The notes below the pieces were generated by a model, which saw only the letters and a list, made by a program, of their open reading frames with translations, did not search any database and had not been told where the DNA came from. A program made the position numbers and the translations under genes. Below, one piece after another: positions 3,744-29,565 of a stretch of 54,252 nt of DNA (positions are counted from its first letter, which is position 1; each line of letters starts with the position of its first letter). The stretch is from a virus (taxonomy: Duplodnaviria; Caudoviricetes): positions 1 through 54,252 of IMG/VR virus record IMGVR_UViG_3300038549_000013; one strand, 5' to 3'.

Positions 3744-3965
3744 CTACGCCACATCTCCCATCCGCTCAAAAGCCACATCCGCCTGCACCAACTCGAGCAG
3801 CGCCCAGAAGGCGGTCAGGTCGCGGTAAAGCCTGTTGTCGTGCAGCTCGCCCTGCCAAATGTGCAGCATCGGGTCGCCGTACTCGCGCACCGCTCGCTCG
3901 AACGCCTCCATGTCCTCGGCATCGATGCGCTCGATGTAGGAGGCGGAGAAGGGGAGTGGAGTCAT
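3744..3965 (-). CDS. hypothetical protein
   Basis: 73-aa ORF tightly packed in the operon. Confidence 0.6.
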   Translation of the reverse strand: MTPLPFSASYIERIDAEDMEAFERAVREYGDPMLHIWQGELHDNRLYRDLTAFWALLELVQADVAFERMGDVA

Positions 3966-4786
3966 GCTGCGAACTCGCGCGGGTAGAACGTCCGCCCGAT
4001 GAATTCAGAAAGCTCGATCGGTATCTTGGCAATCATGGCGCTGGCGAATTTGCGCTTGCTGCTGTTGTGACTGCCGAGGCGCATCGGCGATGAAGAGCCC
4101 GCACCGAACCAGTCCCCACCGCACTTCGTGCCTTCGTCGATATTTTCACCTCGGAACCAGCTGCCACCGGCGTTCTTGATAGCCGAATCTCGAAAACATC
4201 CAGACGCGCCACTACTCTTGTAGTCCGGCTGGCCGTACTTGCTCCAGTCGAGTCCGCCGACTTTCACGCCGCGCTTGCGCGGAATCGGCAACAGCGCAGG
4301 CACATCCCCCCAAAGGTAGAAACTGCCGTAGCGCCCGCGAGCACGGCCTACCCAGGGCTGCGCGCCCTTGACGTTCTCGACCACCATCGGGATGTGCCGG
4401 CCAGCCGCGGCACATGCCTCGCGCTGGATGCGGAAGCAAGCATCGAACAGTGCCGTGAGCTCGGCCGTGGTACGCGAGCCATCGTAGCCGTCCGGGAAAT
4501 CACATTGCCCGCGCAGCGCTCCAGCAATCTGCTTCGCACGCTGCCACGGCATCGCCATGTAGCTGAACTCCGTGCACGGCGGACTCGCCACAATCAGATC
4601 CGCCGAGGCGAACTGCTTGCCGTGAAGAGTGAGAACGTTCTGCAGCACCAGCTGCGCGGGATAGCGGTGCTGGCCGTAGACGTGTTGCTCGATGTCAAAG
4701 CCGATGACTTTCCAGCCAGTGGCGAGCAGACCATCGGTCCAACCTCCCAGGCCCGAGAACAAATCTATGGCGAGCGGCTTGCTCAC
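3962..4786 (-). CDS. DNA cytosine-C5 methyltransferase-like protein (divergent)
   Basis: Motif I IDLFSGLGG, motif II GFDI, motif IV ASPPCTEFS, motif VI VENV. Confidence 0.8.
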   Translation of the reverse strand: MSKPLAIDLFSGLGGWTDGLLATGWKVIGFDIEQHVYGQHRYPAQLVLQNVLTLHGKQFASADLIVASPPCTEFSYMAMPWQRAKQIAGALRGQCDFPDGYDGSRTTAELTALFDACFRIQREACAAAGRHIPMVVENVKGAQPWVGRARGRYGSFYLWGDVPALLPIPRKRGVKVGGLDWSKYGQPDYKSSGASGCFRDSAIKNAGGSWFRGENIDEGTKCGGDWFGAGSSSPMRLGSHNSSKRKFASAMIAKIPIELSEFIGRTFYPREFAA

Positions 4787-6374: not shown

Positions 6375-6595
6375 GCAGCCTCCCGCAGCAGTTCGCTGAC
6401 GTTGCACTGATGCACCAAGAAGCTAATGGCCCACACCCAGGTCCCCGTCCCCGCAGCCTTCGCCGCCTGCGCGCCAGGGGCGGGCTCAGCAGAGGGCAGC
6501 TCCATCGCGTCCAGCGGACTGATGCGCCAAAGTTGCTCGTAGTCGATCCGGTTGGCCAGGGCCAGGATGCATTCGGGTTTGTTCTTGCCGCTCAT
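6371..6595 (-). CDS. hypothetical protein
   Basis: 74-aa ORF coupled on both sides. Confidence 0.5.
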   Translation of the reverse strand: MSGKNKPECILALANRIDYEQLWRISPLDAMELPSAEPAPGAQAAKAAGTGTWVWAISFLVHQCNVSELLREAA

Positions 6596-6765
6596 AGCGC
6601 TCTACCCCATGCCACCCACAGCAGCGCATACTCGATGTGCTTCGGTATCGGCTTGCCTGCTATGTAGTACCGCATCTGCCGAGGGCTGATCTCTATCAGC
6701 CGAGCGGCGCCGCACTGGGTCAGTCCTGCTTCTTCCAGCAGGCGCCGGAGTTGCTTGGGGGTCAT
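6592..6765 (-). CDS. Aca1-like small HTH regulator
   Basis: LRRLLEEAGLTQCGAARLIEISPRQMRYYIAG.PIP..IEYAL resembles Aca1 (LRGLLKKAGISQRRAAELLGLSDRVMRYYLS...APYTVQFAL, recalled from memory). Confidence 0.75.
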   Translation of the reverse strand: MTPKQLRRLLEEAGLTQCGAARLIEISPRQMRYYIAGKPIPKHIEYALLWVAWGRAL

Positions 6766-7109
6766 CCGAAGAGCGCCTTTGAAAGTTGCTGGACGTTCCA
6801 TGAGCTACCCAGGCGCTCTGCTGCTATCTTCGCCAAAGCATCGGCGCCGACTTTGAATGCGGCTTCGATGCCGGCCACGACTTGCAAGATCACCTCGGCC
6901 CTGCGGGCCACGAGCTGTTGGCGCACCTCCGGAAGTACTTCCTTCTCGATCCACTCGCCAACCTCCTTGGCCACGGCTTCCTTCACCTTCCAGCCGATCT
7001 CGCCTTGGATGGAATTCACGGCGCCGGCCACGATATTTTGGACGATCTGTCCACGCTGCTCGGATAGAGCGCGGGCTATCTCTGAATCGAAGTCAACCTG
7101 TTCGGTCAT
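6762..7109 (-). CDS. helical hypothetical protein, candidate anti-defence/anti-CRISPR
   Basis: 115 aa, with its own promoter and AAGGA RBS; coupled to the Aca1-like gene. Confidence 0.6.
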   Translation of the reverse strand: MTEQVDFDSEIARALSEQRGQIVQNIVAGAVNSIQGEIGWKVKEAVAKEVGEWIEKEVLPEVRQQLVARRAEVILQVVAGIEAAFKVGADALAKIAAERLGSSWNVQQLSKALFG

Positions 7110-7145
7110 GGTAATGATCCTTCTGTGATGCCGTTAGGTATGCGC

Positions 7146-7175
7146 ACTGTATGCTCAGTGTGCCTAGGCAGTCAA
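7146..7175 (-). promoter_or_regulatory. sigma70 promoter with operator in the spacer
   Basis: TTGACT-N18-TACAGT, overlapped by the imperfect palindrome TAGGCACACTGAGCATA. Confidence 0.7.
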
Positions 7176-7198
7176 GTCCTAGCAGACGGGCAAGGCTA

Positions 7199-7372
7199 TC
7201 AGCCTTCCTCCAGCATTATCTTGCGCACTGCCAACTCTAGAATCTGCTCATTGGTGAGCGGCTTCTCGCCACTCTTGTGCTTTTCCCATGCATCGCGAAT
7301 CTCGCGAAGCTCATGGGAGCGCAAGTAACGTGACTCGCCTTCGTGCTGCTGACACATTTCAGCTACCCTCAT
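7199..7372 (-). CDS. hypothetical protein
   Basis: Small ORF in operon context. Confidence 0.5.
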   Translation of the reverse strand: MRVAEMCQQHEGESRYLRSHELREIRDAWEKHKSGEKPLTNEQILELAVRKIMLEEG

Positions 7373-9419: not shown

Positions 9420-10039
9420 TTCTTTGCTCGCTTGCTCTCAAGCGCGGCCTTGGCCATTGCGAACTTGGATGCCGGGATATCGGCCAAGCGATCGACCTTC
9501 ATGTATGCCAGGAACTTCGGTCGATCTGCTTTCACCTCCTCTGCCAAATCCATCAGCTCAGTGACCTGATCCTCGCTGATGCCAGCTGCAACCTCATGAG
9601 TCGTTGCGTCGGCATCGTTGTCGCCTTCGGTCGGAATGCAGAAAGCCTCCATGCAGGCATACTTGTACGCCGCTGACATGGCCTTGTTGGATGCCTTGTC
9701 GCCGCTATCCATGGCCTCGCCTACCACTTGCACAGTGTGCTTTGATCCGTCGAGGGCCGACACAAAGTCGAACTCGACGTCTAGCACCACATAGAACAGC
9801 ACGCCGCCGCTTTTGGTCTCGCGCTCCGTAACCACCCGAGACTTCACCCTCGGCAGAATCAGTAGCTTTGATTCCGCCAGAAATGGCGCCAAGGCGTTGT
9901 ACACATCATCGATGCCGCGAAATTTGTAACCCTGCTGAGTGTTCTTGTTGTTCTTGCCGATGCCAACCTTTGCAAGCTTGGCCATGACCTCAGCGATTGC
10001 CGAGTATACCTGCGGTACGTTTTGAATTACTGCACTCAA
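9416..10039 (-). CDS. ERF-family single-strand annealing protein
   Basis: KNTQQGYKFRGIDDV...GEAMDSGDKASNKAMSAAYKY...DNDAD. Likely TTG start after an AGGAGA RBS. Confidence 0.88.
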   Translation of the reverse strand: MSAVIQNVPQVYSAIAEVMAKLAKVGIGKNNKNTQQGYKFRGIDDVYNALAPFLAESKLLILPRVKSRVVTERETKSGGVLFYVVLDVEFDFVSALDGSKHTVQVVGEAMDSGDKASNKAMSAAYKYACMEAFCIPTEGDNDADATTHEVAAGISEDQVTELMDLAEEVKADRPKFLAYMKVDRLADIPASKFAMAKAALESKRAKK

Positions 10040-10088
10040 GTGAAATTCTCCTAGTTCTGCGTGGTCGGTGTGATGTCGGTTACGGTGC

Positions 10089-10427
10089 TCATCGCGCACC
10101 TCGCTTCAGCCACTCGCCAAAAGTCATCCCGCTGTCGGCATCAAGAAACTCGTCGTAGCGCTTCTGTGAGCGCGTACGCTTTGGTGGGGCAGGGCTGTTC
10201 GTGTCGACGTACTCCCGTCCTCGGTCGGTCACCGCGAAGCAGTAATCGCCGCCGTACATTGCGCTGCTGCCAAAGTTGACCATCAGTCCCTCGGTGGTCA
10301 TCTCAGTCAGCAAAGACCACACGTCCGAGTCTCTGCCCGCGACGTAGTGGCTGCGGTACTGCTGTCCACGTCCGTACTGGTCGACGCCAAGCGCGTGCTG
10401 CAGGATTGAGAGGCGTGTTTCGCTCAT
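10089..10427 (-). CDS. hypothetical phage protein (paralog of 2509..2775)
   Basis: HALG...YRSHY...GLM...FAVT..G. Confidence 0.75.
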   Translation of the reverse strand: MSETRLSILQHALGVDQYGRGQQYRSHYVAGRDSDVWSLLTEMTTEGLMVNFGSSAMYGGDYCFAVTDRGREYVDTNSPAPPKRTRSQKRYDEFLDADSGMTFGEWLKRGAR

Positions 10428-12762: not shown

Positions 12763-13577
12763 GGCTTAGGCGCCTCAACCCTCACAGCGATCATCCGGCG
12801 CACCAGATCCAGAGCGCTCGCCTGCAGCTGATCAACTGTTGGCTTTAGCGCGTCCCCACAGGCGTGCCCACAGGCGGCCCGAGCGGCGGCCCCAGCGGCG
12901 GCCCAAGCGGCGGCCCCAGCGGCGGCCCCAGCGGCGGCCCAAGCGGCGTCCCCAGCGGCGGCCCAAGCGGCGGCCCCATAGGCGTGCCCACAGGCGGCCC
13001 GAGCGGCGTCACCAGCGGCGGCCCGAGCGGCCTCCCCAGAGGCGGCCCCAGCGGCGGCCCAAGCGGCGGCCCCAGCGGCGGCCCGAGCGGCGGCCCCAGC
13101 GGCGGCCCGAGCGGCGGCCCCAGCGGCGGCACAAGCGGCGCGAACCTTCTGCCCTGCAGCGGTTGCGCCAGCAAGGTCTGCAATCTCCTCCATCGAGCGC
13201 AACTCGAGCGCGTGCGGCTTGAGCGACTCGACTCGATCGAGAAATGCAGGCGTGTGCACGCGGATTAACCAGTCGAGCGCCATGTACGAGCGGCGATCCT
13301 CAACTGCATGGGTTGATTTCGTGCCGATCAGTTCGGGGATCAGCGGCTTCAAGAGGCGGTCACGCTCCGCATCACTCGGCAGCCCGTCGTTCCAGGAGCG
13401 CAGGAATGCGGCGATCACTGGGCAGGAGCACTCCGGCTGATCAGAGAGCGGCAGGCCGGCGACGTACGCGACAGCCTCCATCACACATGCCTCGCCAGCG
13501 GTTATTTTTTCGGGCTCGTGGCTTCCGCTGCGCAGAGACCAAGCGGTTATCTCAGCCAGTCTTGTTTGAATTGCCAT
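12759..13577 (-). CDS. phage protein with Ala-rich AAW/AAR/AAG repeat tract
   Basis: ACVMEAVAYVAG...SDQPEC.CPVI......WND domain followed by about 95 aa of AAAG/AAAW/AAAR repeats; GGAG RBS. Confidence 0.8.
   Translation of the reverse strand: MAIQTRLAEITAWSLRSGSHEPEKITAGEACVMEAVAYVAGLPLSDQPECSCPVIAAFLRSWNDGLPSDAERDRLLKPLIPELIGTKSTHAVEDRRSYMALDWLIRVHTPAFLDRVESLKPHALELRSMEEIADLAGATAAGQKVRAACAAAGAAARAAAGAAARAAAGAAAWAAAGAASGEAARAAAGDAARAACGHAYGAAAWAAAGDAAWAAAGAAAGAAAWAAAGAAARAACGHACGDALKPTVDQLQASALDLVRRMIAVRVEAPKP
12856..13140. repeat. coding 12-bp degenerate tandem repeat
   Basis: Units gcggcggcccca / gcggcggcccaa / gcggcggcccga repeated about 20 times. Confidence 0.9.
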
Positions 13578-14642: not shown

Positions 14643-14878
14643 GCGCTCACGGCGTAGTCTGGCAGTGCTCCTGCGGCGCCTACACCCCGATGGGCAGGCT
14701 GCTGTGTGAGAGCTGCGGCAAGGTTTTCGCTGGGCCGCTGCCGGACTACCACCGGCCGCCGGCGCCGCTCCACTCATCCAAGTTTCACTCCTGCCGTGTC
14801 TGTGGCCGCGACTACTGGTCGGCCAAGGACGCGCAGTTCTGCTGCTTCCTGTCGCGGCATCGCGAGGCGCGGCAGTGA
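14639..14878 (+). CDS. small zinc-finger protein
   Basis: WQCSCG...CESCG...CRVCG...CC. Confidence 0.6.
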   Translation: MSAHGVVWQCSCGAYTPMGRLLCESCGKVFAGPLPDYHRPPAPLHSSKFHSCRVCGRDYWSAKDAQFCCFLSRHREARQ

Positions 14879-15144
14879 GCGTCCGTCGGCGTCGCATCAG
14901 AGAGCGGTTGCATCGTGATGCGCGTCTGCAACGAGGCATGGCGGACTTCCTGTCAGCGCTGAGCATCCTGGAGCGCATCGAGGAATGCAGCGCTTGCGGT
15001 GGGGCCGGTGTCTTTGATGAGCCAGCGTCGGCCAGTCCGCGCACATTCACCTGCCTTAGCTGCAATGGATCTGGCGAGCATCTCGTAACAGACCAGCCCG
15101 CGGGACCAGAACACATCGTTGAGATGCTGGAGTCATCCAGATGA
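14875..15144 (+). CDS. DnaJ-type zinc-finger protein
   Basis: CSACGGAG and CLSCNGSG. Confidence 0.65.
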   Translation: MSVRRRRIRERLHRDARLQRGMADFLSALSILERIEECSACGGAGVFDEPASASPRTFTCLSCNGSGEHLVTDQPAGPEHIVEMLESSR

Positions 15145-15646: not shown

Positions 15647-15751
15647 TCCTCGCCATCCAGCTTTTCATCATCATCGCCGCACCGCTGATTGTGGTGGGCG
15701 TCTACCTCGCGCGCGTCAGGACGGCGCCGCCTCACCAGGAGTAGAGACTCA

Positions 15752-16264
15752 ATGCGAACAGCAACACACCAGAAATGTTCCGGTTCCGATCTCGATCGAC
15801 TGATCGCCAAGCTGGGCAGCCATCGTCCCTTCCTGGTCGCCTTCGCCAAGCGTCTCGGGGCATCGCACGCCGATGCCCAGGACTGTGCCCAGGTGGCGCT
15901 GACGAAAGGGTGGCTGCACCTCGATCAGTTCGAGGGAAATGACTACGACGTCGCGCTGCGTAAGTGGCTCGGCACCATCCTGAAGAATCAATTCTTCAGC
16001 GCCATCCGGCGCGACCGGGTGGCCGCGAAGTATCTCAAATCCATGTTGGCGGAACCCACGTGCGAGTGCCGCGGCGAGGCCTCCTATGAATTCGATCGGG
16101 TGATGCGCGCCGCATCGTCGCTGCCACCGTGCCAGCGTGATGTCGTGTCGGACCTGCTCGATGGCCTCGACTACCAGCAGAGCGCTGAGCATCGAGGCAT
16201 ACCGATCGGCACGGTCAAGTCGCGATTGTTTCGCGCGCGCGAGGCATTGCAGGTGGTCGCATGA
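15752..16264 (+). CDS. ECF-type (sigma-70 regions 2 and 4) RNA polymerase sigma factor
   Basis: DAQDCAQVAL...F.G.....L.KWL.TI.KN, then LPPCQRDV....GLDY......GIPIGTVKSRLFRAR. Confidence 0.88.
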   Translation: MRTATHQKCSGSDLDRLIAKLGSHRPFLVAFAKRLGASHADAQDCAQVALTKGWLHLDQFEGNDYDVALRKWLGTILKNQFFSAIRRDRVAAKYLKSMLAEPTCECRGEASYEFDRVMRAASSLPPCQRDVVSDLLDGLDYQQSAEHRGIPIGTVKSRLFRAREALQVVA

Positions 16265-17649
16265 GCTACGAGCAATTCATCGCTGAAAAACTCCAGCGGG
16301 CGGTAGCGGCTGGACTACGCGATATCCCGCCACTTCCCGGCTCGCTACTCCCACTGCAGTCGGCGTTGGTGCCCTGGGCGCTCAAGCGCGGACGGTGTGC
16401 GATCTTCGCAGACACCGGGCTTGGAAAGTCGCGGATGGAGATCGCATGGGCGGATGCGCTGCATTCAGCACTCGGCATCGACATCTTGATGCTGACCCCG
16501 CTGGCCGTTGCCCGGCAGATGGTTGCAGAGGCGGCTCAGATCGGAGTGCAGATCACTCACTGCCGGACCGATTTTGATGTGCGCCCAGGACTCAATGTCA
16601 CCAACTACGAGCGCATGCACTTGTTCGACCCGGCGATGTTCGGCGGGGTCATCCTGGACGAATCGAGCTGCATCAAGCACCACGATAGCAAGACACTGCA
16701 GCGACTGCTCGAGGCATTCGCCAGCACTCCTTACAAGCTCTGCGCGAGCGCCACTCCGGCGCCGAATGACTGGACCGAGCTCGGTACACACGCGGAGTTC
16801 CTGGGCGTCTGCAAGCGCTCCGAGATGCTTTCCGAGTTCTTCGTGCACGACGGCGGCGAGACGCAGGTATGGCGGCTCAAGGGCCATGCTCGGCAAGCAT
16901 TCTGGCGCTGGGTTGCGTCATGGGCCGCAATGGTTCGGAAGCCTTCCGACCTGGGCCTGGATGACGCCGCCTACCAGCTGCCGCCACTGCGGATGCATGA
17001 GCACATCGTGGACTCTGGCAGCGAGACGGCTGGGATGCTCTTCAAGATGGATGCGCAGACGCTCATGGAGCGTCGCAACGCACGCAGAGCAACCATCGAG
17101 CAGCGAGTCGCAAAGTGCATCGAAATTGTGGAGTCGGAGCCCGACGAGCCTTGGGTGATTTGGGGAGACCTGAATGCCGAGACCGACGCGCTGGCCAGTA
17201 GAATCAGCAATACAATCCAGGTTGCCGGCGCTGATGACATCGACACCAAAGAAGACAGGTTGCTCGGCTTCTCGTCGGGCAAGTATCGCAGACTGGTCTC
17301 AAAGAGCTCGATAGCAGGATGGGGCTGCAACTGGCAGCACTGTGCCCGCATGGCATTCGTCGGCGTCACGGATAGCTACGAGTCGGTCTACCAGTCGATC
17401 CGGCGTTGCTACCGCTTTGGCCAGAAGCGCCCGGTCGACGTGCATGTCATCGCGAGCGATATCGAGGGCGCAGTGCTCGCAAACTTGCGACGCAAAGAAG
17501 CAGACGCTAACGAGATGGCGGCGTCACTCGCAGCCGAGACCCGCAGCGCAGTGATGGCCGAAGTTTTCGGATCTGTATCAACCACCAACGATTACAACGC
17601 CACTATGCCGATGCGGCAGCCGTCGTGGCTAAGGACAAAAGCACAATGA
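16261..17649 (+). CDS. SNF2-like helicase/ATPase
   Basis: ADTGLGKS, TNYE, ILDESS, ASATPAPND, GWGCNWQ, QSIRRCYRFGQ. Confidence 0.9.
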   Translation: MSYEQFIAEKLQRAVAAGLRDIPPLPGSLLPLQSALVPWALKRGRCAIFADTGLGKSRMEIAWADALHSALGIDILMLTPLAVARQMVAEAAQIGVQITHCRTDFDVRPGLNVTNYERMHLFDPAMFGGVILDESSCIKHHDSKTLQRLLEAFASTPYKLCASATPAPNDWTELGTHAEFLGVCKRSEMLSEFFVHDGGETQVWRLKGHARQAFWRWVASWAAMVRKPSDLGLDDAAYQLPPLRMHEHIVDSGSETAGMLFKMDAQTLMERRNARRATIEQRVAKCIEIVESEPDEPWVIWGDLNAETDALASRISNTIQVAGADDIDTKEDRLLGFSSGKYRRLVSKSSIAGWGCNWQHCARMAFVGVTDSYESVYQSIRRCYRFGQKRPVDVHVIASDIEGAVLANLRRKEADANEMAASLAAETRSAVMAEVFGSVSTTNDYNATMPMRQPSWLRTKAQ

Positions 17650-18515
17650 ACTGCATCGACCAGGACATCGGACCGAGCTGGGCCCTATACAACGGTGATT
17701 GCGTGGAAGTGCTGCGAGGCGTGCCAGACAGCAGTGTCGACTACAGCATATTTTCACCGCCCTTTGAGTCGCTTTACACTTACAGCAACTCACCGCGTGA
17801 CATGGGAAACTGCTCATCTAGCGAACAGTTTTTCGAGCACTTCGGTTTCCTGCTCACACAACTGCTACGAGTCATGCGCCCGTGTCGAGACATCAGCGTG
17901 CACTGCATGCTGCTGCCAACCAGCAAGGCAAGGGATGGCGTCATCGGACTGCGGGACTTTCGAGGCGAGATCATCCGTGCATTTGAAGCGCATGGATTCA
18001 TTCACCATTCCGAAGTCGTGATCTGGAAAGACCCCGTGACCGCTATGCAGCGGACAAAGGCGCTCGGGTTGCTCCACAAGACCGTGCGCGAGAACGCTAG
18101 CATGGCGCGGCAGGGCATCCCTGATTATTTGGTGACATTCCGATCACCGGGTGAGATCGGGCGCCGCGTGACTCACACTGCAGAGGACTATCCAGTGAGT
18201 TACTGGCAGAAGATCGCCAGTCCAGTTTGGATGGACATCGATCCGAACGACACGCTGCAGTACCGCTCGGCGCGAGAGCACGATGATGAGCGCCATATAT
18301 GCCCACTCCAGCTAGAAGTGATTCGACGTGGCATCCATCTTTGGACTAATCCCGAGGACGTAGTGCTCTCGCCTTACGCCGGGATCGGCAGCGAAGGCCA
18401 CGTCGCTAATCAACTCGGCCGCAAGTTCGTCGGGGTAGAACTCAAGCAGAGCTACTACGAGCAGGCCAAGCGTAACCTTCGTGCCAGCGTCGATCAGCAG
18501 GATATGTTCGCATGA
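17646..18515 (+). CDS. N4-cytosine/N6-adenine DNA methyltransferase (beta class)
   Basis: GDCVEVL, FSPPF, HICPLQL, VLSPYAGIGSEG, GVELK. Confidence 0.9.
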   Translation: MNCIDQDIGPSWALYNGDCVEVLRGVPDSSVDYSIFSPPFESLYTYSNSPRDMGNCSSSEQFFEHFGFLLTQLLRVMRPCRDISVHCMLLPTSKARDGVIGLRDFRGEIIRAFEAHGFIHHSEVVIWKDPVTAMQRTKALGLLHKTVRENASMARQGIPDYLVTFRSPGEIGRRVTHTAEDYPVSYWQKIASPVWMDIDPNDTLQYRSAREHDDERHICPLQLEVIRRGIHLWTNPEDVVLSPYAGIGSEGHVANQLGRKFVGVELKQSYYEQAKRNLRASVDQQDMFA

Positions 18516-18558: not shown

Positions 18559-18930
18559 ATGAGCAATCGCCACGGCTACAACATCAAAGCACTGCGCCTC
18601 CAATGCTGGAAGCGCCAACGCGGGCATTGCTATTTCTGCGACGCCGTGACGTGGCTTCCAGTCGATGGTAAGCCCTCGGACGCTCTCATGGCTACGCTGG
18701 AGCACCTGATCGACCTGGACCTTGGCGGCAGCTGGCACGGCTCAAACCTCGCGTGCAGCTGTTACGGATGCAACAACAAGAGGGCCGCTGAGAAGCATGC
18801 GGCTCGAAACGGGCAGCGCGACCTCATTGCGCGCTACTCAAAGCCGCGCCGCAGAGTTCGCGCGGATGATTCCTGCAACTGCGGCGACACTGGCTGCGAC
18901 GGCATGCAGTGCCAGCGGGTGCTAGCATGA
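18559..18930 (+). CDS. HNH endonuclease
   Basis: CYFC...ATLEHL....GG....NL..SCYGCNNKR. Confidence 0.8.
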   Translation: MSNRHGYNIKALRLQCWKRQRGHCYFCDAVTWLPVDGKPSDALMATLEHLIDLDLGGSWHGSNLACSCYGCNNKRAAEKHAARNGQRDLIARYSKPRRRVRADDSCNCGDTGCDGMQCQRVLA

Positions 18931-19229
18931 AGAAAGTCTACATCTCCGGCCCCATCAGCGGCATTCCAAACGGCAACGTGGGTGCTTTCATTGATGCCTA
19001 CAACGCGCTCAAGGTAGCTGGTTACGATCCGGTCAACCCCTACAACAACGGCTTGCCAGGTCACGCCACATGGCACGAGCACATGCGTGCCGACATCCGC
19101 ATGCTGCTCGACTGCGACGGCGTGGCGCTGCTTCCCGGCTGGTACAACAGCAAGGGCGCGCAGATCGAGCGCCAGCTTGCGTATAGCCTCGACATGGACG
19201 TGCGGGACCTGCAGGAGTGGCTCTCATGA
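18927..19229 (+). CDS. DUF4406 / nucleoside 2-deoxyribosyltransferase-like protein
   Basis: KVYISGPISG, NP, MRADI..LL.CD...LLPGW..SKGA..E. Confidence 0.85.
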   Translation: MKKVYISGPISGIPNGNVGAFIDAYNALKVAGYDPVNPYNNGLPGHATWHEHMRADIRMLLDCDGVALLPGWYNSKGAQIERQLAYSLDMDVRDLQEWLS

Positions 19230-25667: not shown

Positions 25668-25828
25668 AGGGCGTCACGAATCGAAAGGCCAAGCCCGACT
25701 CCCCAGCCCTGGCACTACTGCGCGCCCTGCTAGCCGACTACGATGCAGCCAGGAACAGCGTGGACCGACTCTGGTCGCTCGAGCGCCGGATTGAGCAGAT
25801 TCGCAGGACGGTGGAGGCTGTGCAGTGA
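25664..25828 (+). CDS. hypothetical protein
   Basis: Coupled overlaps on both sides. Confidence 0.45.
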   Translation: MKGVTNRKAKPDSPALALLRALLADYDAARNSVDRLWSLERRIEQIRRTVEAVQ

Positions 25829-26112
25829 GCATCCCACGCTACGCCGCTCGGGTCGACGCCACGCAGGCCGAGATCGTGGAGGCCATCCGAAAGGCTGGGT
25901 GGAACGTGGTCCAGCTCAAGCATCCCGTTGACTTGCTCTGCGACAAGAACGGCGTCATCAAATTGCTCGAGTGCAAGACACCGAAGGGCAAGCGCTCGCC
26001 AAAGCTCAAGCTGCGCAAGGACCAGCAGGCCCAGGCCGAGTTCTGCCGTCGGACCATGACACCCTACGTAACGACGGCAGAAGAGGCGCTGAGAGCCTTG
26101 GGCGAGATCTAG
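25825..26112 (+). CDS. VRR-NUC/PD-(D/E)XK nuclease (resolvase-like)
   Basis: AARVDA.QAEIV.A.R..G..V...PVDLL.......LLECK. Confidence 0.8.
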   Translation: MSIPRYAARVDATQAEIVEAIRKAGWNVVQLKHPVDLLCDKNGVIKLLECKTPKGKRSPKLKLRKDQQAQAEFCRRTMTPYVTTAEEALRALGEI

Positions 26113-26279
26113 GGCGAGTACCAGTTCGCCGACTGCGCCCGGCGAGCCTCGCGGCGAATCCGCAGCTCCGAGAGCCGCAGCCGCACCTCGGCCCAGATGA
26201 GCAGGCCGAGGGCTGAGACGCCCCCGGCCACGAACAGCAGAACGACGAACCCGGCCAGCATCGTGAGGTTCTCGATCAT
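26109..26279 (-). CDS. small membrane protein
   Basis: MIENLTMLAGFVVLLFVAGGVSALGLLIW...; ATGA-coupled. Confidence 0.5.
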   Translation of the reverse strand: MIENLTMLAGFVVLLFVAGGVSALGLLIWAEVRLRLSELRIRREARRAQSANWYSP

Positions 26280-26614
26280 GGCACTTCCTCGACCCCGAAG
26301 TGCGCGAACATCTCGCGCGGCGGGATGAAGCGGTACGTCTTGCCGTCCTTGGTGAATGGCTCGGGCGGCGCGCGATTGAGCATCTCGACCGCCTGCTCAT
26401 GGGAGCGCTGCAGCGAGACGAGAGCATGGTAGGCCAGCAGCACGAAGGTGTCAGAGTCGTTCAGCCCTCGCACTTGCGCGGCTTCCATGACGGCGTGGAT
26501 CGTGGTGCAGTCGTATCGCGCATCCTTGATTGCCCTGCGCATCTCGGCGATTGTGGTTGGCCGAGATCCGTCGGCCCGAAGTCCAACGGATGGCATTGCG
26601 TCGATAAGTCTCAT
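26276..26614 (-). CDS. hypothetical protein
   Basis: AAGGAG RBS, ATGA coupling. Confidence 0.65.
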   Translation of the reverse strand: MRLIDAMPSVGLRADGSRPTTIAEMRRAIKDARYDCTTIHAVMEAAQVRGLNDSDTFVLLAYHALVSLQRSHEQAVEMLNRAPPEPFTKDGKTYRFIPPREMFAHFGVEEVP

Positions 26615-26832
26615 GGCTGTCTCCTTGCGCGGCCCGCGGGCCGCTGTTGGTGAACTACCCACCGCATGGCCAGCACAGCCACGTGGGGCACCGGGTGGCG
26701 CTCATCGCCACTGAGCCAGTACTCGACTGTCCGCTGCGACACGCGCAGAGCTGCGGCCGCCTGGGACTGGCTCATGCCGGCCTGCCCGATGAGGGTCCGC
26801 AGGTCCTGACGGAGTTGGGGTTGGTCGCTCAT
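26611..26832 (-). CDS. Aca1-like small HTH regulator
   Basis: LRTLIGQAGMSQSQAAAALRVSQRTVEYWLSG...PVP; similar to 6592..6765. Confidence 0.75.
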   Translation of the reverse strand: MSDQPQLRQDLRTLIGQAGMSQSQAAAALRVSQRTVEYWLSGDERHPVPHVAVLAMRWVVHQQRPAGRARRQP

Positions 26833-27053
26833 GCCTGCACCTGCTCATTCAGTACGCCGAACTTTCGCTCGCTGGCGTTGAAAAATGCGGGCAGACCAGC
26901 AGCCTTGCAGCGGCTCACCCAGCTAGCCATGACGCCAGCGCTTTGATACTGGTCGCAGACCAGCCACTTGCCTTCGGTCGTGAACTCGCGCACGTCGGCA
27001 AGATTTGCCTTGCCGACGATCTGTCCGATCTGTGCAAGGGTGAAAGTGGCCAT
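26829..27053 (-). CDS. small hypothetical protein, candidate anti-defence
   Basis: 74 aa, own promoter, GGAG RBS, coupled to the HTH gene. Confidence 0.65.
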   Translation of the reverse strand: MATFTLAQIGQIVGKANLADVREFTTEGKWLVCDQYQSAGVMASWVSRCKAAGLPAFFNASERKFGVLNEQVQA

Positions 27054-27100
27054 GCTGCTCTCCAGGTTTCTGGCCGCAGGACATCTGCGGCATGGGTGGT

Positions 27101-27138
27101 ACAGTACCGCAATCCGTTCGGGACCGCAATAGTTTCGG
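27101..27138 (-). promoter_or_regulatory. sigma70 promoter with two operator-like sites
   Basis: TTGCGG-N17-TACTGT; sites ccgcaatccgttcgg (27107-27121) and ccgcaatagtttcgg (27124-27138). Confidence 0.65.
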
Positions 27139-27251
27139 CGTGAGTATTTACCGAGGCGCGTCATCCTCGGCCACCACCTGCGCGTAACTCATGGCCCTGT
27201 GGCGCTCTGAGAGCCTCCTGCAGTGCATCGACAGCGAGTGGATGGCTCGGG

Positions 27252-27632
27252 TCAGGCGCAGCTGGTCTCGCGCCGTGGAGCCCTACGAATCACGCCATCC
27301 CACGGGTCCGGCCACTGAGCGCGAGCCAGGTGAGCCGGCAGGTGACTGGCAATCTCGCCGTAAGGGTCATGGGCACAGACTGGGCCCTGCAACGGGCCAG
27401 CCAGATACCAGCAGCCGTCCTCGCCCCAACCGCATCGCACGCCGCGGATCTGCGCGGCTGCGACGAATGCGGCGACTTTCGGCGCGTAGTCGTCTGTAAT
27501 CTTGGCCGCTGCATTCGCGGCCTCAGCGATTAGGACGGCGCCGTCAGGGCACCAAGGCGAGACCGGCAGCTCAACCCCAGTCGCAGCCTCGATCTGAAGC
27601 TGCACCAACCGTAGTGTCTCCTCGGGGCCCAT
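27252..27632 (-). CDS. hypothetical protein
   Basis: 126 aa, GGAG RBS. Confidence 0.6.
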   Translation of the reverse strand: MGPEETLRLVQLQIEAATGVELPVSPWCPDGAVLIAEAANAAAKITDDYAPKVAAFVAAAQIRGVRCGWGEDGCWYLAGPLQGPVCAHDPYGEIASHLPAHLARAQWPDPWDGVIRRAPRRETSCA

Positions 27633-27880
27633 TATCGACTCCTCCGATGTGGTCGTGCGTTATCTGCGCGGGTTCCGCCCCGTGCCTCATTGGCAGCACG
27701 TGCTCGTGCTGGAGCGATCTGCTCCAACTTGATTCTGGACCGAAACTGCTTTGCTCTGGCGTCAACCTCGTTGCCAAACTGGGCTGCCTTTTTGGCAACG
27801 CATGGCTCGCATCGACAGCTCAGCCGATGCTGCAGTCTTTCACAGGCTGGGCAGTGGCAATTTTCTTTGTGCCTCATCAT
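27632..27880 (-). CDS. Cys-rich basic hypothetical protein
   Basis: CHCPAC...CRCEPC; coupled. Confidence 0.55.
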   Translation of the reverse strand: MMRHKENCHCPACERLQHRLSCRCEPCVAKKAAQFGNEVDARAKQFRSRIKLEQIAPARARAANEARGGTRADNARPHRRSR

Positions 27881-28545
27881 GCCGGTACCAGTTCGCCATG
27901 TGCGGCGGTATGCGCGACCATGGCATCGTCATAGGCGATGCCATCGATCACAATCATGCCCGCCTCATCGGCGAGTTGCTCCAGGCTCAGGGGGCCCTGC
28001 CTGAGCTCGTGACGGCATTTGCCGCCAATGTCGGCAAGGTTTCCGCCACTGACCTCGTAAGTCGTGCCGTCGAGCGCCACAGCCATGGTGCGCGCGTCCA
28101 TGCAATGACGCCCCTCGGTGAGCTTCTCGGTGACGATCCATCCCTGAGCGGCCGCGTAGGTCGCTTGCGAGTCCAGGAGGGCAGCGGTGTGCTGCTGCTC
28201 CATGCTGACCTTGGCGGCGCCGGCAGCCGCCACCATCTTAGAGACCAGCTTGCGCTGCTCCTCGAGGCACGAGCCTACAATCTCCCAGAACGAGAATTTA
28301 CCGGCTGACCCGATCTTTCGGGTCACAACAGCGCGGCCTTCGCGGGCCGCTGCCTCAATCTCAGCCAGCGCCCAGGCTGGCTGGGCCTTGGCCGGCACGT
28401 GGTGGCGATGGCCATCCACAGTAAGGATGTTAGGCCGATGATCGCCGACGAAAAGATCCGTCGGCTGACCGAGCGTAGGCTCGCCGTCGGCCGGAATGAA
28501 TCGTGCGGGCTGCTCGCGCCGCTCGTTGTTGTCCCAGTGTGCCAT
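27877..28545 (-). CDS. hypothetical protein
   Basis: 222 aa, GGAGGAG RBS, first gene after a promoter. Confidence 0.7.
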   Translation of the reverse strand: MAHWDNNERREQPARFIPADGEPTLGQPTDLFVGDHRPNILTVDGHRHHVPAKAQPAWALAEIEAAAREGRAVVTRKIGSAGKFSFWEIVGSCLEEQRKLVSKMVAAAGAAKVSMEQQHTAALLDSQATYAAAQGWIVTEKLTEGRHCMDARTMAVALDGTTYEVSGGNLADIGGKCRHELRQGPLSLEQLADEAGMIVIDGIAYDDAMVAHTAAHGELVPA

Positions 28546-28587
28546 CGAGGTTGCTCCTCCGGCTGCGTGGTTGCTGCCGATGGGTGC

Positions 28588-28616
28588 AATCTACCGCAAT
28601 CATTGCGGCTAGGCAA
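28588..28616 (-). promoter_or_regulatory. sigma70 promoter with palindromic operator
   Basis: TTGCCT-N17-TAGATT; the spacer holds CCGCAAT-c-ATTGCGG (28594-28608). Confidence 0.72.
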
Positions 28617-28649
28617 GCGGTGCCGTGTACGTAGTTTCCGAGGGATGAG

Positions 28650-29137
28650 TTTTTTCAGGCAAAAGCATTCACTGATCCTTAGGGAACCCCCACTGTCCGG
28701 GGTCCGGCTGCCGCTGTGGATCAGGGCATGGTGCTTGGTTCAGGTGGACTTGGCAGCGCAATTCGCAGATCCGTTCGCCTCCATGGCACTCGGACGGTCC
28801 CCACCGGCGGGAAGCTCCCGCGGGCTTTGTTCCACTAACCTGCTTTCAGCCTGTAGGCTCCTGCGCCCTCAAGCTCGGTCGGATCAGGCCCGACGCTGCC
28901 AATACACTCGGTTTGTATCGCTCGCGTATGCGTTTGGAGCGCCCGACTGACGGGAACAGCAGATCAGAGTGGAACTTGGGCAGGGGCTGGGGCATCATAT
29001 GCACCGGGACCATGTCGCGGTCTCACCGTGGCTCGGACTGCTGTTACAGACGGCCACTGCCGCAGGAGCTTTCGTCGGCTCACTGCGGTGTTGAAATCAT
29101 ACCCGCTAGTTGCGCAAGTGGCTAGCGGGTATTTTTT
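28650..29137. ncRNA. candidate large structured non-coding element
   Basis: No credible ORF; three perfect 8-9 bp long-range helices in crossing order plus many hairpins. Confidence 0.5.
29099..29137 (+). terminator. intrinsic terminator
   Basis: atacccgctagttgc-GCAA-gtggctagcgggtat, with G-U pairs and a GNRA loop on the plus strand, followed by a T-tract. Confidence 0.7.
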
Positions 29138-29199
29138 CGCCCACGTCAAGGGCAATCTGCTACTATTTGCAGCATGAATCGAAGTGCTGAGAATCCCTG

Positions 29200-29565
29200 A
29201 TGGCTGGCCGCAACTACACGTCGCATCGTCCAAAAGCGCATGCCATCCACGACGAATTCCAAGACCGCTGGATATTCATCGAGCCGGTTGTGATGGGCAG
29301 TCGCGAGCAGGAGTTCATGCGCCGTTTCGCCGCCGGCCGCAGCATGCAACAGATAGCCCATGAGATGGGCGTGTCGGAGCGCACTGCCAGCAGCTTTTCG
29401 ACAGACCTGCAGTTCAAATTTCAGGTGACAGGGGTGCGCAAGCTGTTCCTGATCGCCATTCAGCTCTACCCAAGAGCTGCCACTATCGGAGGGCGCGCCA
29501 GATACAGCACCCGGGAGCCGTCTACAGTAAATGCGCCCGGAACTGCCCCGAGGCGCGCTCTCTGA
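29200..29565 (+). CDS. LuxR/GerE-type HTH protein
   Basis: SREQEFMRRFAAGRSMQQIAHEMGVSERTA. Confidence 0.7.
   Translation: MAGRNYTSHRPKAHAIHDEFQDRWIFIEPVVMGSREQEFMRRFAAGRSMQQIAHEMGVSERTASSFSTDLQFKFQVTGVRKLFLIAIQLYPRAATIGGRARYSTREPSTVNAPGTAPRRAL

Follow-up and report, generated by a model that had tools for sequence, protein, structure and literature searches.

A candidate Aca1-like autorepressor with a re-targeted operator over two promoter-like regions in an inverted gene island of a P22-like phage

The window analyzed here is the whole of IMG/VR record IMGVR_UViG_3300038549_000013, a phage genome of 54,252 bp (GC 60.7%) that is rated complete by CheckV. It contains an island of seven tightly coupled minus-strand open reading frames (ORFs; g1 to g7, 26109-28545) within an arm of plus-strand genes. 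With moderate confidence, we read this island as an accessory cassette of the acr-aca type (anti-CRISPR and anti-CRISPR-associated genes), anti-defense part included, in which the small helix-turn-helix (HTH) protein g5 would be an Aca1-like autorepressor acting through a re-targeted operator placed over two promoters. The regulatory part of this reading is well supported by sequence-level evidence of three kinds: the anatomy of the two promoter-like regions, a correspondence between changed residues in the protein and changed bases in the DNA, and one independent co-occurrence of the operator with the recognition helix. As to the cargo, anti-defense or host take-over would be the most likely class, a tentative assignment drawn from position and regulation only.

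Results

Operator-like sites in two promoter-like regions

Three copies of one operator-like site, CCGCAAT-N-ATTGCGG, had been reported by a first-pass annotation of the sequence. All three were recovered (O1, O2 and O3, with 0, 2 and 3 mismatches; Table 1), and they form the top direct-repeat family (D1) returned by a repeat finder in the region. O1 abuts the -10 hexamer of the promoter-like region P1, O3 abuts that of P2, and O2 sits 17 bp upstream of O3. These three, all inside the island's two intergenic regions, make up half of the six sites with at most 3 mismatches in the genome. The chance of at least two sites falling in the 198-bp g3-g4 spacer, estimated from the genome-wide site rate, is ∼1e-4.

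The same annotation had described two sigma70 promoters, each with a site next to its -10 box. The adjacency holds at both, while the promoter call was overstated for P2, which matches the consensus at 6 of 12 positions (8 of 12 for P1). P1 and P2 nevertheless share one register, in which ATTGCGG is followed directly by the -10-like hexamer, 3-4 nt, CACCCAT, a hairpin and a ribosome-binding site (RBS). The pattern GCGGTA-N5-7-CACCC occurs at P1 and P2 and nowhere else in the 54 kb. The non-random part of the arrangement is the clustering of the sites together with this shared register.

The proposed regulator g5 and its likeness to Aca1

g5 had been proposed to be a second Aca1-like HTH of this phage, and profile and structure searches agree. 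It is of the XRE type, with matches to HTH_31 (E 4.2e-6), HTH_3 (E 1.1e-5) and phrog_2328, "transcriptional repressor" (E 3.2e-6), and weaker matches below cut-off to YdaS_toxin and Xre-like-HTH (E 0.002-0.008). Its best relatives in the Protein Data Bank (PDB) are the Aca1 structures 7c0g, 7fa3 and 7vjn (E 8.4e-4 to 1.2e-3, over g5 residues 10-59), and the next match has an E of 0.015. The first HTH, encoded at 6592-6801 with the helix SPRQMRYY, also has Aca1 as its best PDB match (E 5e-5), and keeps the equivalents of Arg44, Arg47 and Tyr48.

Eleven DNA contacts of Aca1 are named in the part of the structural study drawn on here (PMC8633003). g5 keeps six of them (R22, S31, Q32, S42, R44 and Y48, in Aca1 numbering) and differs at the others (R47 to E, V45 to T, R59 to H, R33 to S and Y49 to W). 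In the same part of that source, the Aca1 operator IR2 is given as GGCAC-AAT-GTGCC, with the core bases read by Arg44 and Tyr48 (together with Val45) and the outer G read by Arg47. Aligned on their centers, O1 and IR2 have GCA-N5-TGC in common, which upholds the shared core named in the first-pass annotation; this core is all that the island's repeated site CCGCAAT-N-ATTGCGG shares with the Aca1 operator GGCAC-N3-GTGCC.

In g5, Arg34 is equivalent to Aca1 Arg44, Tyr38 to Tyr48, and Glu37 to Arg47. The base next outward of the core is G in the Aca1 site and C in O1, where it lies opposite g5 Glu37. The substitution of Arg47 by Glu in the protein and that of the outer G by C in the DNA therefore fall at the same contact, and we infer that Glu37 reads the outer C of O1. 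The palindromic form of the site further implies that g5 probably acts as a dimer. The diverged operator flank fits the diverged recognition helix. At a second locus, described below, the same palindrome is paired with the same type of helix. A full-text literature search for the operator half-sites together with "repressor" gave nothing relevant among the matches listed.

At the first HTH (6592-7200 region), the HTH gene follows a 115-aa orphan gene, and both lie behind TTGACT-17-ATACAG. The spacer of this promoter contains GGCACACTGAGCA, which has 2 mismatches to the Aca1 site, and an inverted repeat with 8-nt arms lies across its -10. The fold of the leader is not significant.

An independent pairing of palindrome and recognition helix

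A scan of IMG/VR with a 17-nt pattern, the palindrome followed by TA, gave 19 loci. In one of these (L010), TTGACG and TATAAG flank an 18-nt spacer that contains the palindrome CCGCAAT-A-ATTGCGG, and 13 nt after the palindrome comes the ATG of an 82-aa HTH protein. The recognition helix of this protein, SKRIVEYY, likewise has Glu at the position of Aca1 Arg47. Overall, this protein and g5 are 28% identical. In ∼520 kb of fetched pattern loci, the motif S.R.[VIM].Y[WY] was found a single time, in L010. Peptide patterns drawn from the g5+L010 alignment, one for the helix and a second one, are matched by no more than 62 stretches of IMG/VR, and tblastn confirmed none of these. Given this rarity, we estimate that chance adjacency in L010 has a probability of the order of 1e-5.

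The L010 module thus resembles the island in that the palindrome is the same and sits within a promoter spacer, right against the -10, and in that the helix has the form S-x-R-x-V-E-Y-aromatic. It differs in having a single site, an HTH gene that is leaderless and first in its operon, and replication cargo. A search of plasmids with the L010 HTH gave no match. Two further candidates from these scans were discarded: the two palindromes of L210 fall within an ORF of ParB-like type, and a tblastn match in L041 lies in a 485-aa ORF rather than in a small HTH gene.

Leaders and comparison with known Aca systems

The layout of acr-aca1 operons has been described by Feussner et al. 2026 (PMC13551039), and we draw on a part of that account. 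There, a DNA motif lies in the promoter, a second, upstream motif is present in 86 of 211 operons, and the leader contains a ∼20-nt inverted repeat that starts directly after the transcription start site (TSS), ends ∼20 nt before the start codon and is bound by Aca1 as RNA. Aca proteins are also predicted there to control neighboring operons, most genes of which are unannotated. In the island, O1 and O3 are inverted repeats in promoter-like regions with a predicted TSS ∼10 nt downstream, O2 takes the place of the second upstream motif at P2, and the P2 leader carries a 19-nt inverted repeat that ends 19 nt before the ATG.

This P2 hairpin has a perfect 7-bp stem (GCCGCAG-ATGTC-CTGCGGC). It is the only occurrence of CCGCA-N3-9-TGCGG in the genome other than O1, so its stem copies an operator half-site. 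The P2 leader folds with -19.1 kcal/mol (z -1.8), a value matched by 10 of 200 shuffled sequences. The P1 counterpart is a weak 20-nt hairpin (3+2 bp) that ends 14 nt before the ATG, in a leader with a fold of -16.1 kcal/mol (z -2.47; matched by 3 of 200 shuffles). CACCCAT, a leader hairpin and a good RBS follow both promoter-like regions, as first annotated, with a hairpin that is weak at P1.

In P1, P2 and the L010 promoter alike, the -10 is followed after 4-5 nt by CCCAT. In L010 this CCCAT stands ∼13 nt after the palindrome and contains the ATG of the leaderless HTH gene, and the predicted folds of the island leaders show it base-paired to the region of the start codon. A leaderless 56-aa ORF starting from the ATG inside the P2 CCCATG was dropped, as its frame is non-coding by codon score.

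The regulons of Feussner et al. resemble the island in combining one Aca-type regulator, sites at its own and at a neighboring operon, and mostly unannotated cargo; they start, however, from the canonical Aca1-Aca14 families and the known motifs of these (PMC13551039), whereas the island's regulator and motif are diverged. The island hairpins resemble the leader repeats of that study in size and position.

Compared with Aca1 of Pseudomonas phage JBD30 (7C0G, 7FA3, 7VJM and 7VJN), g5 is likewise a small HTH protein of less than 85 aa that keeps the phosphate-contact residues and the equivalents of Arg44 and Tyr48. The JBD30 acrIF1-aca1 promoter, as far as it is described in the part of PMC8633003 cited above, shares with the island a promoter inverted repeat, the GCA-N5-TGC core and a short half-site spacing, and the second site upstream of P2 recalls its pair of IR1 and IR2. 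The two systems differ in that similarity of the proteins is low (E 8e-4), the half-site is CCGCAAT rather than GGCAC, and Glu, Thr and His take the places of Arg47, Val45 and Arg59. The island also has no known acr gene upstream of the HTH gene and has two more genes after it, and the phage is P22-like rather than Mu-like, with no integrase found.

Aca2 of Pectobacterium phage ZF40, an HTH protein that binds DNA and RNA, is an autorepressor with an inverted repeat over its promoter and leader hairpins, as is proposed here for g5, and the two have the Y-W-x-S-G end of the recognition helix in common. Aca2 differs in its half-site (GTTC) and in recognition helices held ∼34 Å apart on unbent DNA (PMC8633003). 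It also has a distinct dimerization domain; g5 has the short spacing of the Aca1 type and no extra domain.

Genes of the island and their relatives

The island lies between the last replication-side gene (25825-26112, plus strand) and a 580-bp ORF-poor stretch. Seven minus-strand genes inside a plus-strand arm had been annotated, and the ORFs are indeed present: a codon-usage test, for which 21 family-assigned genes of this phage served as the training set, ranked the annotated frame first of six for all seven, by a small margin for g2 and g5. Five of the six gene junctions are overlaps (ATGA at g1/g2, g4/g5, g5/g6 and g6/g7; TAATG at g2/g3), and the sixth is the 198-bp g3/g4 spacer that holds P2. 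For g4 and g6, the choice of a short start is backed by relatives of matching length. Downstream of g3, a hairpin that the scan did not call as a terminator (Table 1) is probably leaky, in which case P1 transcripts may read into g4-g7.

Table 1. Positions of the features discussed in the text
Feature	Position	Strand	Description
P1 promoter-like region	28588-28616	minus	-35 TTGCCT (28611-28616), 17-nt spacer, -10 TAGATT (28588-28593); 8/12
P2 promoter-like region	27101-27129	minus	-35 TTGCGG (27124-27129), 17-nt spacer, -10 TACTGT (27101-27106); 6/12
O1	28594-28608		CCGCAAT-G-ATTGCGG, perfect palindrome; fills P1 spacer; only 0-mismatch match in window
O2	27124-27138		CCGAAAC-T-ATTGCGG, 2 mismatches; right half supplies P2 -35 TTGCGG
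O3	27107-27121		CCGAACG-G-ATTGCGG, 3 mismatches; in P2 spacer, abuts -10 as O1 does at P1
Aca1-consensus-like site	28612-28624	minus	GGCAC-CGC-TTGCC, 1 mismatch to GGCAC-N3-GTGCC; over P1 -35
P1 leader	28554-28586	minus	CACCCAT 28580-28586, hairpin 28560-28579, RBS GGAGGAG 28554-28560, ATG at 28545
P2 leader	27058-27098	minus	CACCCAT 27092-27098, hairpin 27073-27091, RBS GGAGAG 27058-27063
Hairpin after g3	27151-27171	minus	7 bp, no U-tract; from fold of 27140-27255; not called a terminator by scan
g1	27877-28545	minus	ORF, 222 aa; first gene behind P1; codon score 0.34
g2	27632-27880	minus	ORF, 82 aa; CxCxxC-N8-CxCxxC, then basic tail
g3	27252-27632	minus	ORF, 126 aa; best frame in codon test
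g4	26829-27053	minus	74 aa; ATG at 27053 after GGAGAG; directly upstream of HTH gene; codon score 0.44
g5	26611-26832	minus	ORF, 73 aa; XRE-type HTH by profile matches
g6	26276-26614	minus	112 aa; unnamed small phage protein family, motif EMR-AI...GLSGED-YV-LAY-AL
g7	26109-26279	minus	ORF, 56 aa; one hydrophobic helix, then basic tail; small membrane protein

The phyletic pattern differs from one cargo gene to the next. g1 has no relatives in phage records or IMG/VR and finds only itself among 5.8 billion proteins, with look-up scores in a protein atlas below 0.8. No relatives or families were found for g2, which is of atypical composition (GC content at third codon positions, GC3, of 0.53) in a frame that is only marginally the best, or for g7 (GC3 0.93, best frame), which has a weak LapA_dom match (E 0.02). 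g3 has one relative, at IMG/VR locus L146 (51% identity over residues 22-118), which lies among small uncharacterized genes upstream of an integrase, with no g5-like HTH and no palindrome; its atlas look-up gave no usable match. g4, which by analogy stands in the position held by the acr gene, has a 74-aa relative (P0073) on an 18-kb Logan contig, with 84% identity over 99% coverage, which supports the 74-aa start; a search of IMG/VR with P0073 found none.

g6 belongs to a widespread family with 67 representative clusters at E<=1e-3, of whose members 0 of 44 matched Pfam and 1 of 44 matched PHROGs (E 0.007). Its AF2 model is confident and helical (predicted local distance difference test score, pLDDT, 85.6), and a fold search with this model gave no match (Foldseek best E 0.7; VIA best Z 5.0, to generic helices). 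Loci of the family were scanned with a 12-sequence subset, the full alignment being too divergent. Relatives lie in replication or recombination modules, co-oriented with their neighbors and without an HTH gene: next to AAA_24 and DUF669 (L021), after a gene for single-stranded DNA-binding protein (SSB; L022), and in an SSB-containing arm (L023). The closest, in L023 (Ga0196964_10000213, 10001-10372, on a 42.7-kb metagenome contig), is 66% identical by blastp; this contig has SSB (73%), an 88-aa protein (75%) and NinB in common with the phage, and lacks the other island genes. On these grounds, the island is a mosaic in which accessory genes that travel independently are brought together under one local regulator. 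Such mosaics are typical of counter-defense or host-takeover hotspots, an analogy that is not proof of such a role.

Genome setting

Scans of 81 called ORFs against PHROGs and of 58 against Pfam divide the genome into three gene blocks. The first (0-14.4 kb, minus strand) encodes Erf, an exonuclease, SSB, NinB, a RusA-like resolvase, a DNA methylase and a DpdA-like transglycosylase. The second (14.4-25.7 kb, rightward) encodes a sigma factor of the extracytoplasmic function (ECF) type, helicases, a primase, a DHH phosphoesterase and RNase H. The third (35-54 kb) holds P22-type genes for terminase, portal, scaffold, capsid and ejection proteins. From 14.4 kb to the genome end, all called genes outside the island are on the plus strand. 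The portal has at most 49% identity to any phage record, and a near-identity search of phage records with the island region gave no match. Neither an integrase nor a CI-type repressor/S24 was detected among the 81 (PHROGs) or 58 (Pfam) ORFs, and Rfam and tRNA scans of the whole window returned nothing. Among the sequencing runs listed, the sequence was present in one DNA run and in no RNA run. In the DNA run, which is possibly the source sample and hence not independent, one contig spans 25864-29300 with zero differences. A 151-nt contig of depth 2 from the same run, at 28301-28446 with 28 differences, gives a faint hint of a diverged g1 relative.

The stop of g7 overlaps the stop of the Hjc-like 95-aa plus-strand gene (25825-26112) by 4 nt (26109-26112). 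There is no terminator between the two, so early rightward transcription would enter the island antisense, and vice versa. At the other border, the ORF-poor stretch (28617-29199) lies just upstream of a GerE/LuxR-type gene (29200-29565) and the late genes. It ends in a strong terminator on the plus strand, with a 15-bp stem at 29099-29132 and T6 behind it, and could be the leader of a late promoter with a terminator of the tR' kind. Among PHROGs, a weak Q-antiterminator-like match (E 8e-4) was obtained for the 89-aa protein encoded at 14875-15144.

The ECF-type sigma factor (Sigma70_r2 + r4_2) is encoded at 15689-16264, within a P22-like genome. Four genes for DNA modification were observed, at 85-828 (DpdA-like queuine tRNA-ribosyltransferase homologue), 3962-4786 (C5 methylase), 17625-18515 (second methyltransferase) and 18909-19229 (nucleoside 2-deoxyribosyltransferase), and it is likely that anti-restriction functions are thereby already present outside the island. 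At 12873-13140, a 12-nt unit, GGCGGCCCCAGC, is repeated in 22 tandem copies with 84% matches, and ORFs are open in three frames across it.

Discussion

The arrangement described above suggests a self-contained and self-repressed cassette of two tandem operons, with P1 driving g1-g2-g3 and P2 driving g4-g5-g6-g7. g5 would bind CCGCAAT-N-ATTGCGG, and with O1 in the P1 spacer, O3 in the P2 spacer and O2 over the P2 -35, occupancy of the sites would exclude RNA polymerase from both promoters. On entry of the DNA into a cell free of g5, this circuit would give a burst of expression, followed by shut-down as g5 accumulates. The core contacts (Arg34 and Tyr38) would be kept relative to Aca1, with specificity shifted through Glu37 and the outer C. 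The leader hairpins, chiefly the operator-like one at P2, may provide a second, RNA-level input as for Aca1 and Aca2. Such a layout is already known from acr-aca1 operons; of interest here are the apparent switch in specificity, a phage that has two Aca1-like paralogues, and the orphan cargo.

Several results weigh against reading the island as an Aca1-like cassette. With regard to the DNA, both P1 and P2 fall below the scan's bar of 9 of 12 consensus positions and were not called. The six genome-wide sites with at most 3 mismatches are within chance (3.63 expected; 15 of 100 shuffles reach six), and perfect palindromes with 7-nt arms are common (19 in the window, 21.2 in simulations). With regard to the protein, phage Aca1 proteins strictly conserve five base readers, Arg44, Val45, Arg47, Tyr48 and Arg59, according to the part of PMC8633003 used here, and g5 keeps only two of them, Arg44 and Tyr48. 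A single-sequence model of g5 is poor (pLDDT 70.7, helices 2 and 3 merged, no HTH match), a result that says nothing either way. In classical acr-aca operons the regulator gene comes last, whereas two more genes follow g5. As no g5 relative was found in the set of 5.8 billion proteins, phage records or IMG/VR, conservation of the pairing rests on one locus. Among the matches listed, a g5-like HTH was seen beside the palindrome at 0 of 120 genome loci and at 0 of 118 further IMG/VR loci. The one locus that does, L010, has an HTH with only marginal matches to Aca2 and Aca1 (E 0.07-0.3), and this HTH heads a Prim-Pol operon in a plasmid-like element with ParA and a serine recombinase, which indicates that the helix/operator module is not tied to anti-defense cargo.

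The cargo itself adds to these points. None of the six non-HTH proteins has a significant match, and none is a known acr or other anti-defense gene product, in Pfam, PHROGs, NCBIfam or PADLOC, the screen being confined to general libraries and PADLOC, with no search aimed at dedicated Acr or anti-defense libraries (dbAPIS etc.). Analysis of gene neighborhoods, which the first-pass annotation had named as a check on its anti-defense regulon, also speaks against it, since at readable loci the relatives of g3 and g6 lie among replication, recombination or integrase-side genes and have no regulator beside them.

The alternative that fares best, and which we consider unlikely, is that g5 is a generic Cro-like early regulator of accessory or replication-linked genes and that its likeness to Aca1 reflects a common small-HTH scaffold. 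The Prim-Pol gene behind the sole other helix/operator pair found, from an element that also encodes ParA and a serine recombinase, would suit such a regulator, as would the replication and recombination modules in which the g6 relatives of L021, L022 and L023 are found in the orientation of their neighbors, and the fact that the island adjoins the phage's replication genes. The island is, however, opposite in orientation and has its own promoters, and its orphan cargo shows gene-by-gene phyletic patterns, with no replication-type domain in any cargo gene by Pfam or PHROGs. Its combination of operator, second site and leader hairpin is that of acr-aca1 operons in the part of PMC13551039 drawn on here. 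A lambdoid CI/Cro immunity region in particular is not what is seen, as g5 consists of an HTH only (73 aa), no divergent gene is seen at P1, and no integrase/S24 match was found among the ORFs scanned.

It is improbable that the island is a toxin-antitoxin, superinfection-exclusion or immunity cassette, with g5 as the antitoxin or immunity HTH and g4, g6 or the membrane protein g7 as effector. The HTH antitoxins HigA2 and MqsA are named as structural neighbors of Aca1 in the part of PMC8633003 cited here, g4 precedes g5, an order like that of toxin and HTH in HigBA, g7 is a small membrane protein, and the YdaS_toxin and Xre-like-HTH matches of g5 (below cut-off) point the same way. Yet Pfam, NCBIfam and PADLOC show no toxin family, of HigBA or Xre type or otherwise, for g4, g6 or g7, the g6 relatives have no HTH partner, and with no integrase or CI-type repressor among the ORFs scanned, a role that depends on expression from a prophage is without support.

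Highly improbable, in our estimate, is that the motif is bound by some other factor (the GerE/LuxR-type protein, the first HTH or a host protein) or is a phage promoter element for the ECF sigma factor. The invariant ATTGCGG+TA abuts the -10 and could be such an element, the phage encodes the ECF sigma factor and several other HTH proteins, and the GerE-type gene is 580 bp from P1. But no other promoter-like place in the genome has the motif, palindromic symmetry such as that of O1 does not belong to promoters, and L010 pairs the palindrome with a g5-like helix, with no GerE-type or sigma match among the six L010-record proteins compared with Pfam. That the likeness of the two intergenic regions is due to chance, with no shared regulation, is barely credible: the counts of degenerate sites and of palindromes do lie within shuffled expectation, but both regions, and no others, keep the same register over ∼25 nt, a single 198-bp spacer contains two of the sites, and the pairing recurs in L010.

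Returning to the Aca1-like cassette, the first-pass annotation had further described its regulon as separately regulated from that of the first HTH. This is uncertain, as an Aca1-consensus-like site with 1 mismatch overlaps the P1 -35. Six Aca1-like sites with at most 1 mismatch are present in the window (3.71 expected), three of them in the island (28612-28624, 26687-26699 and 28394-28406). The site at 28612-28624 may represent an input, or cross-regulation, from the first HTH, a lead that arose post hoc. In its fullest form, the model would have two paralogous Aca1-type repressors with orthogonal specificities derived from one helix change (Arg to Glu) and a matching change of the outer operator base (G to C), controlling separately timed anti-defense regulons that are possibly wired together at P1, with the P2-type leader hairpin as an RNA target of g5 and a cargo that includes defense inhibitors without known relatives. 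We regard this full version as quite unlikely.

If the cargo is not anti-defense in nature, as the Prim-Pol context of L010 warns, the island would counsel caution against reading every Aca-like cassette as counter-defense. If, on the other hand, the cassette is what we propose, guilt-by-association searches for anti-defense genes would extend to HTH proteins that are barely reached by Aca1 sequence searches, and six uncharacterized proteins would become candidates for screening, including the widespread, unnamed g6 family with its 67 clusters. If g5 does bind its sites, Aca1 with GGCAC and g5 with CCGCAAT would together give a recognition rule in which Arg reads G, Glu reads C, and the core is otherwise shared. 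Aca-type repressors already serve as anti-anti-CRISPR tools, and such a rule, if true, could aid the design of orthogonal repressors of this type.

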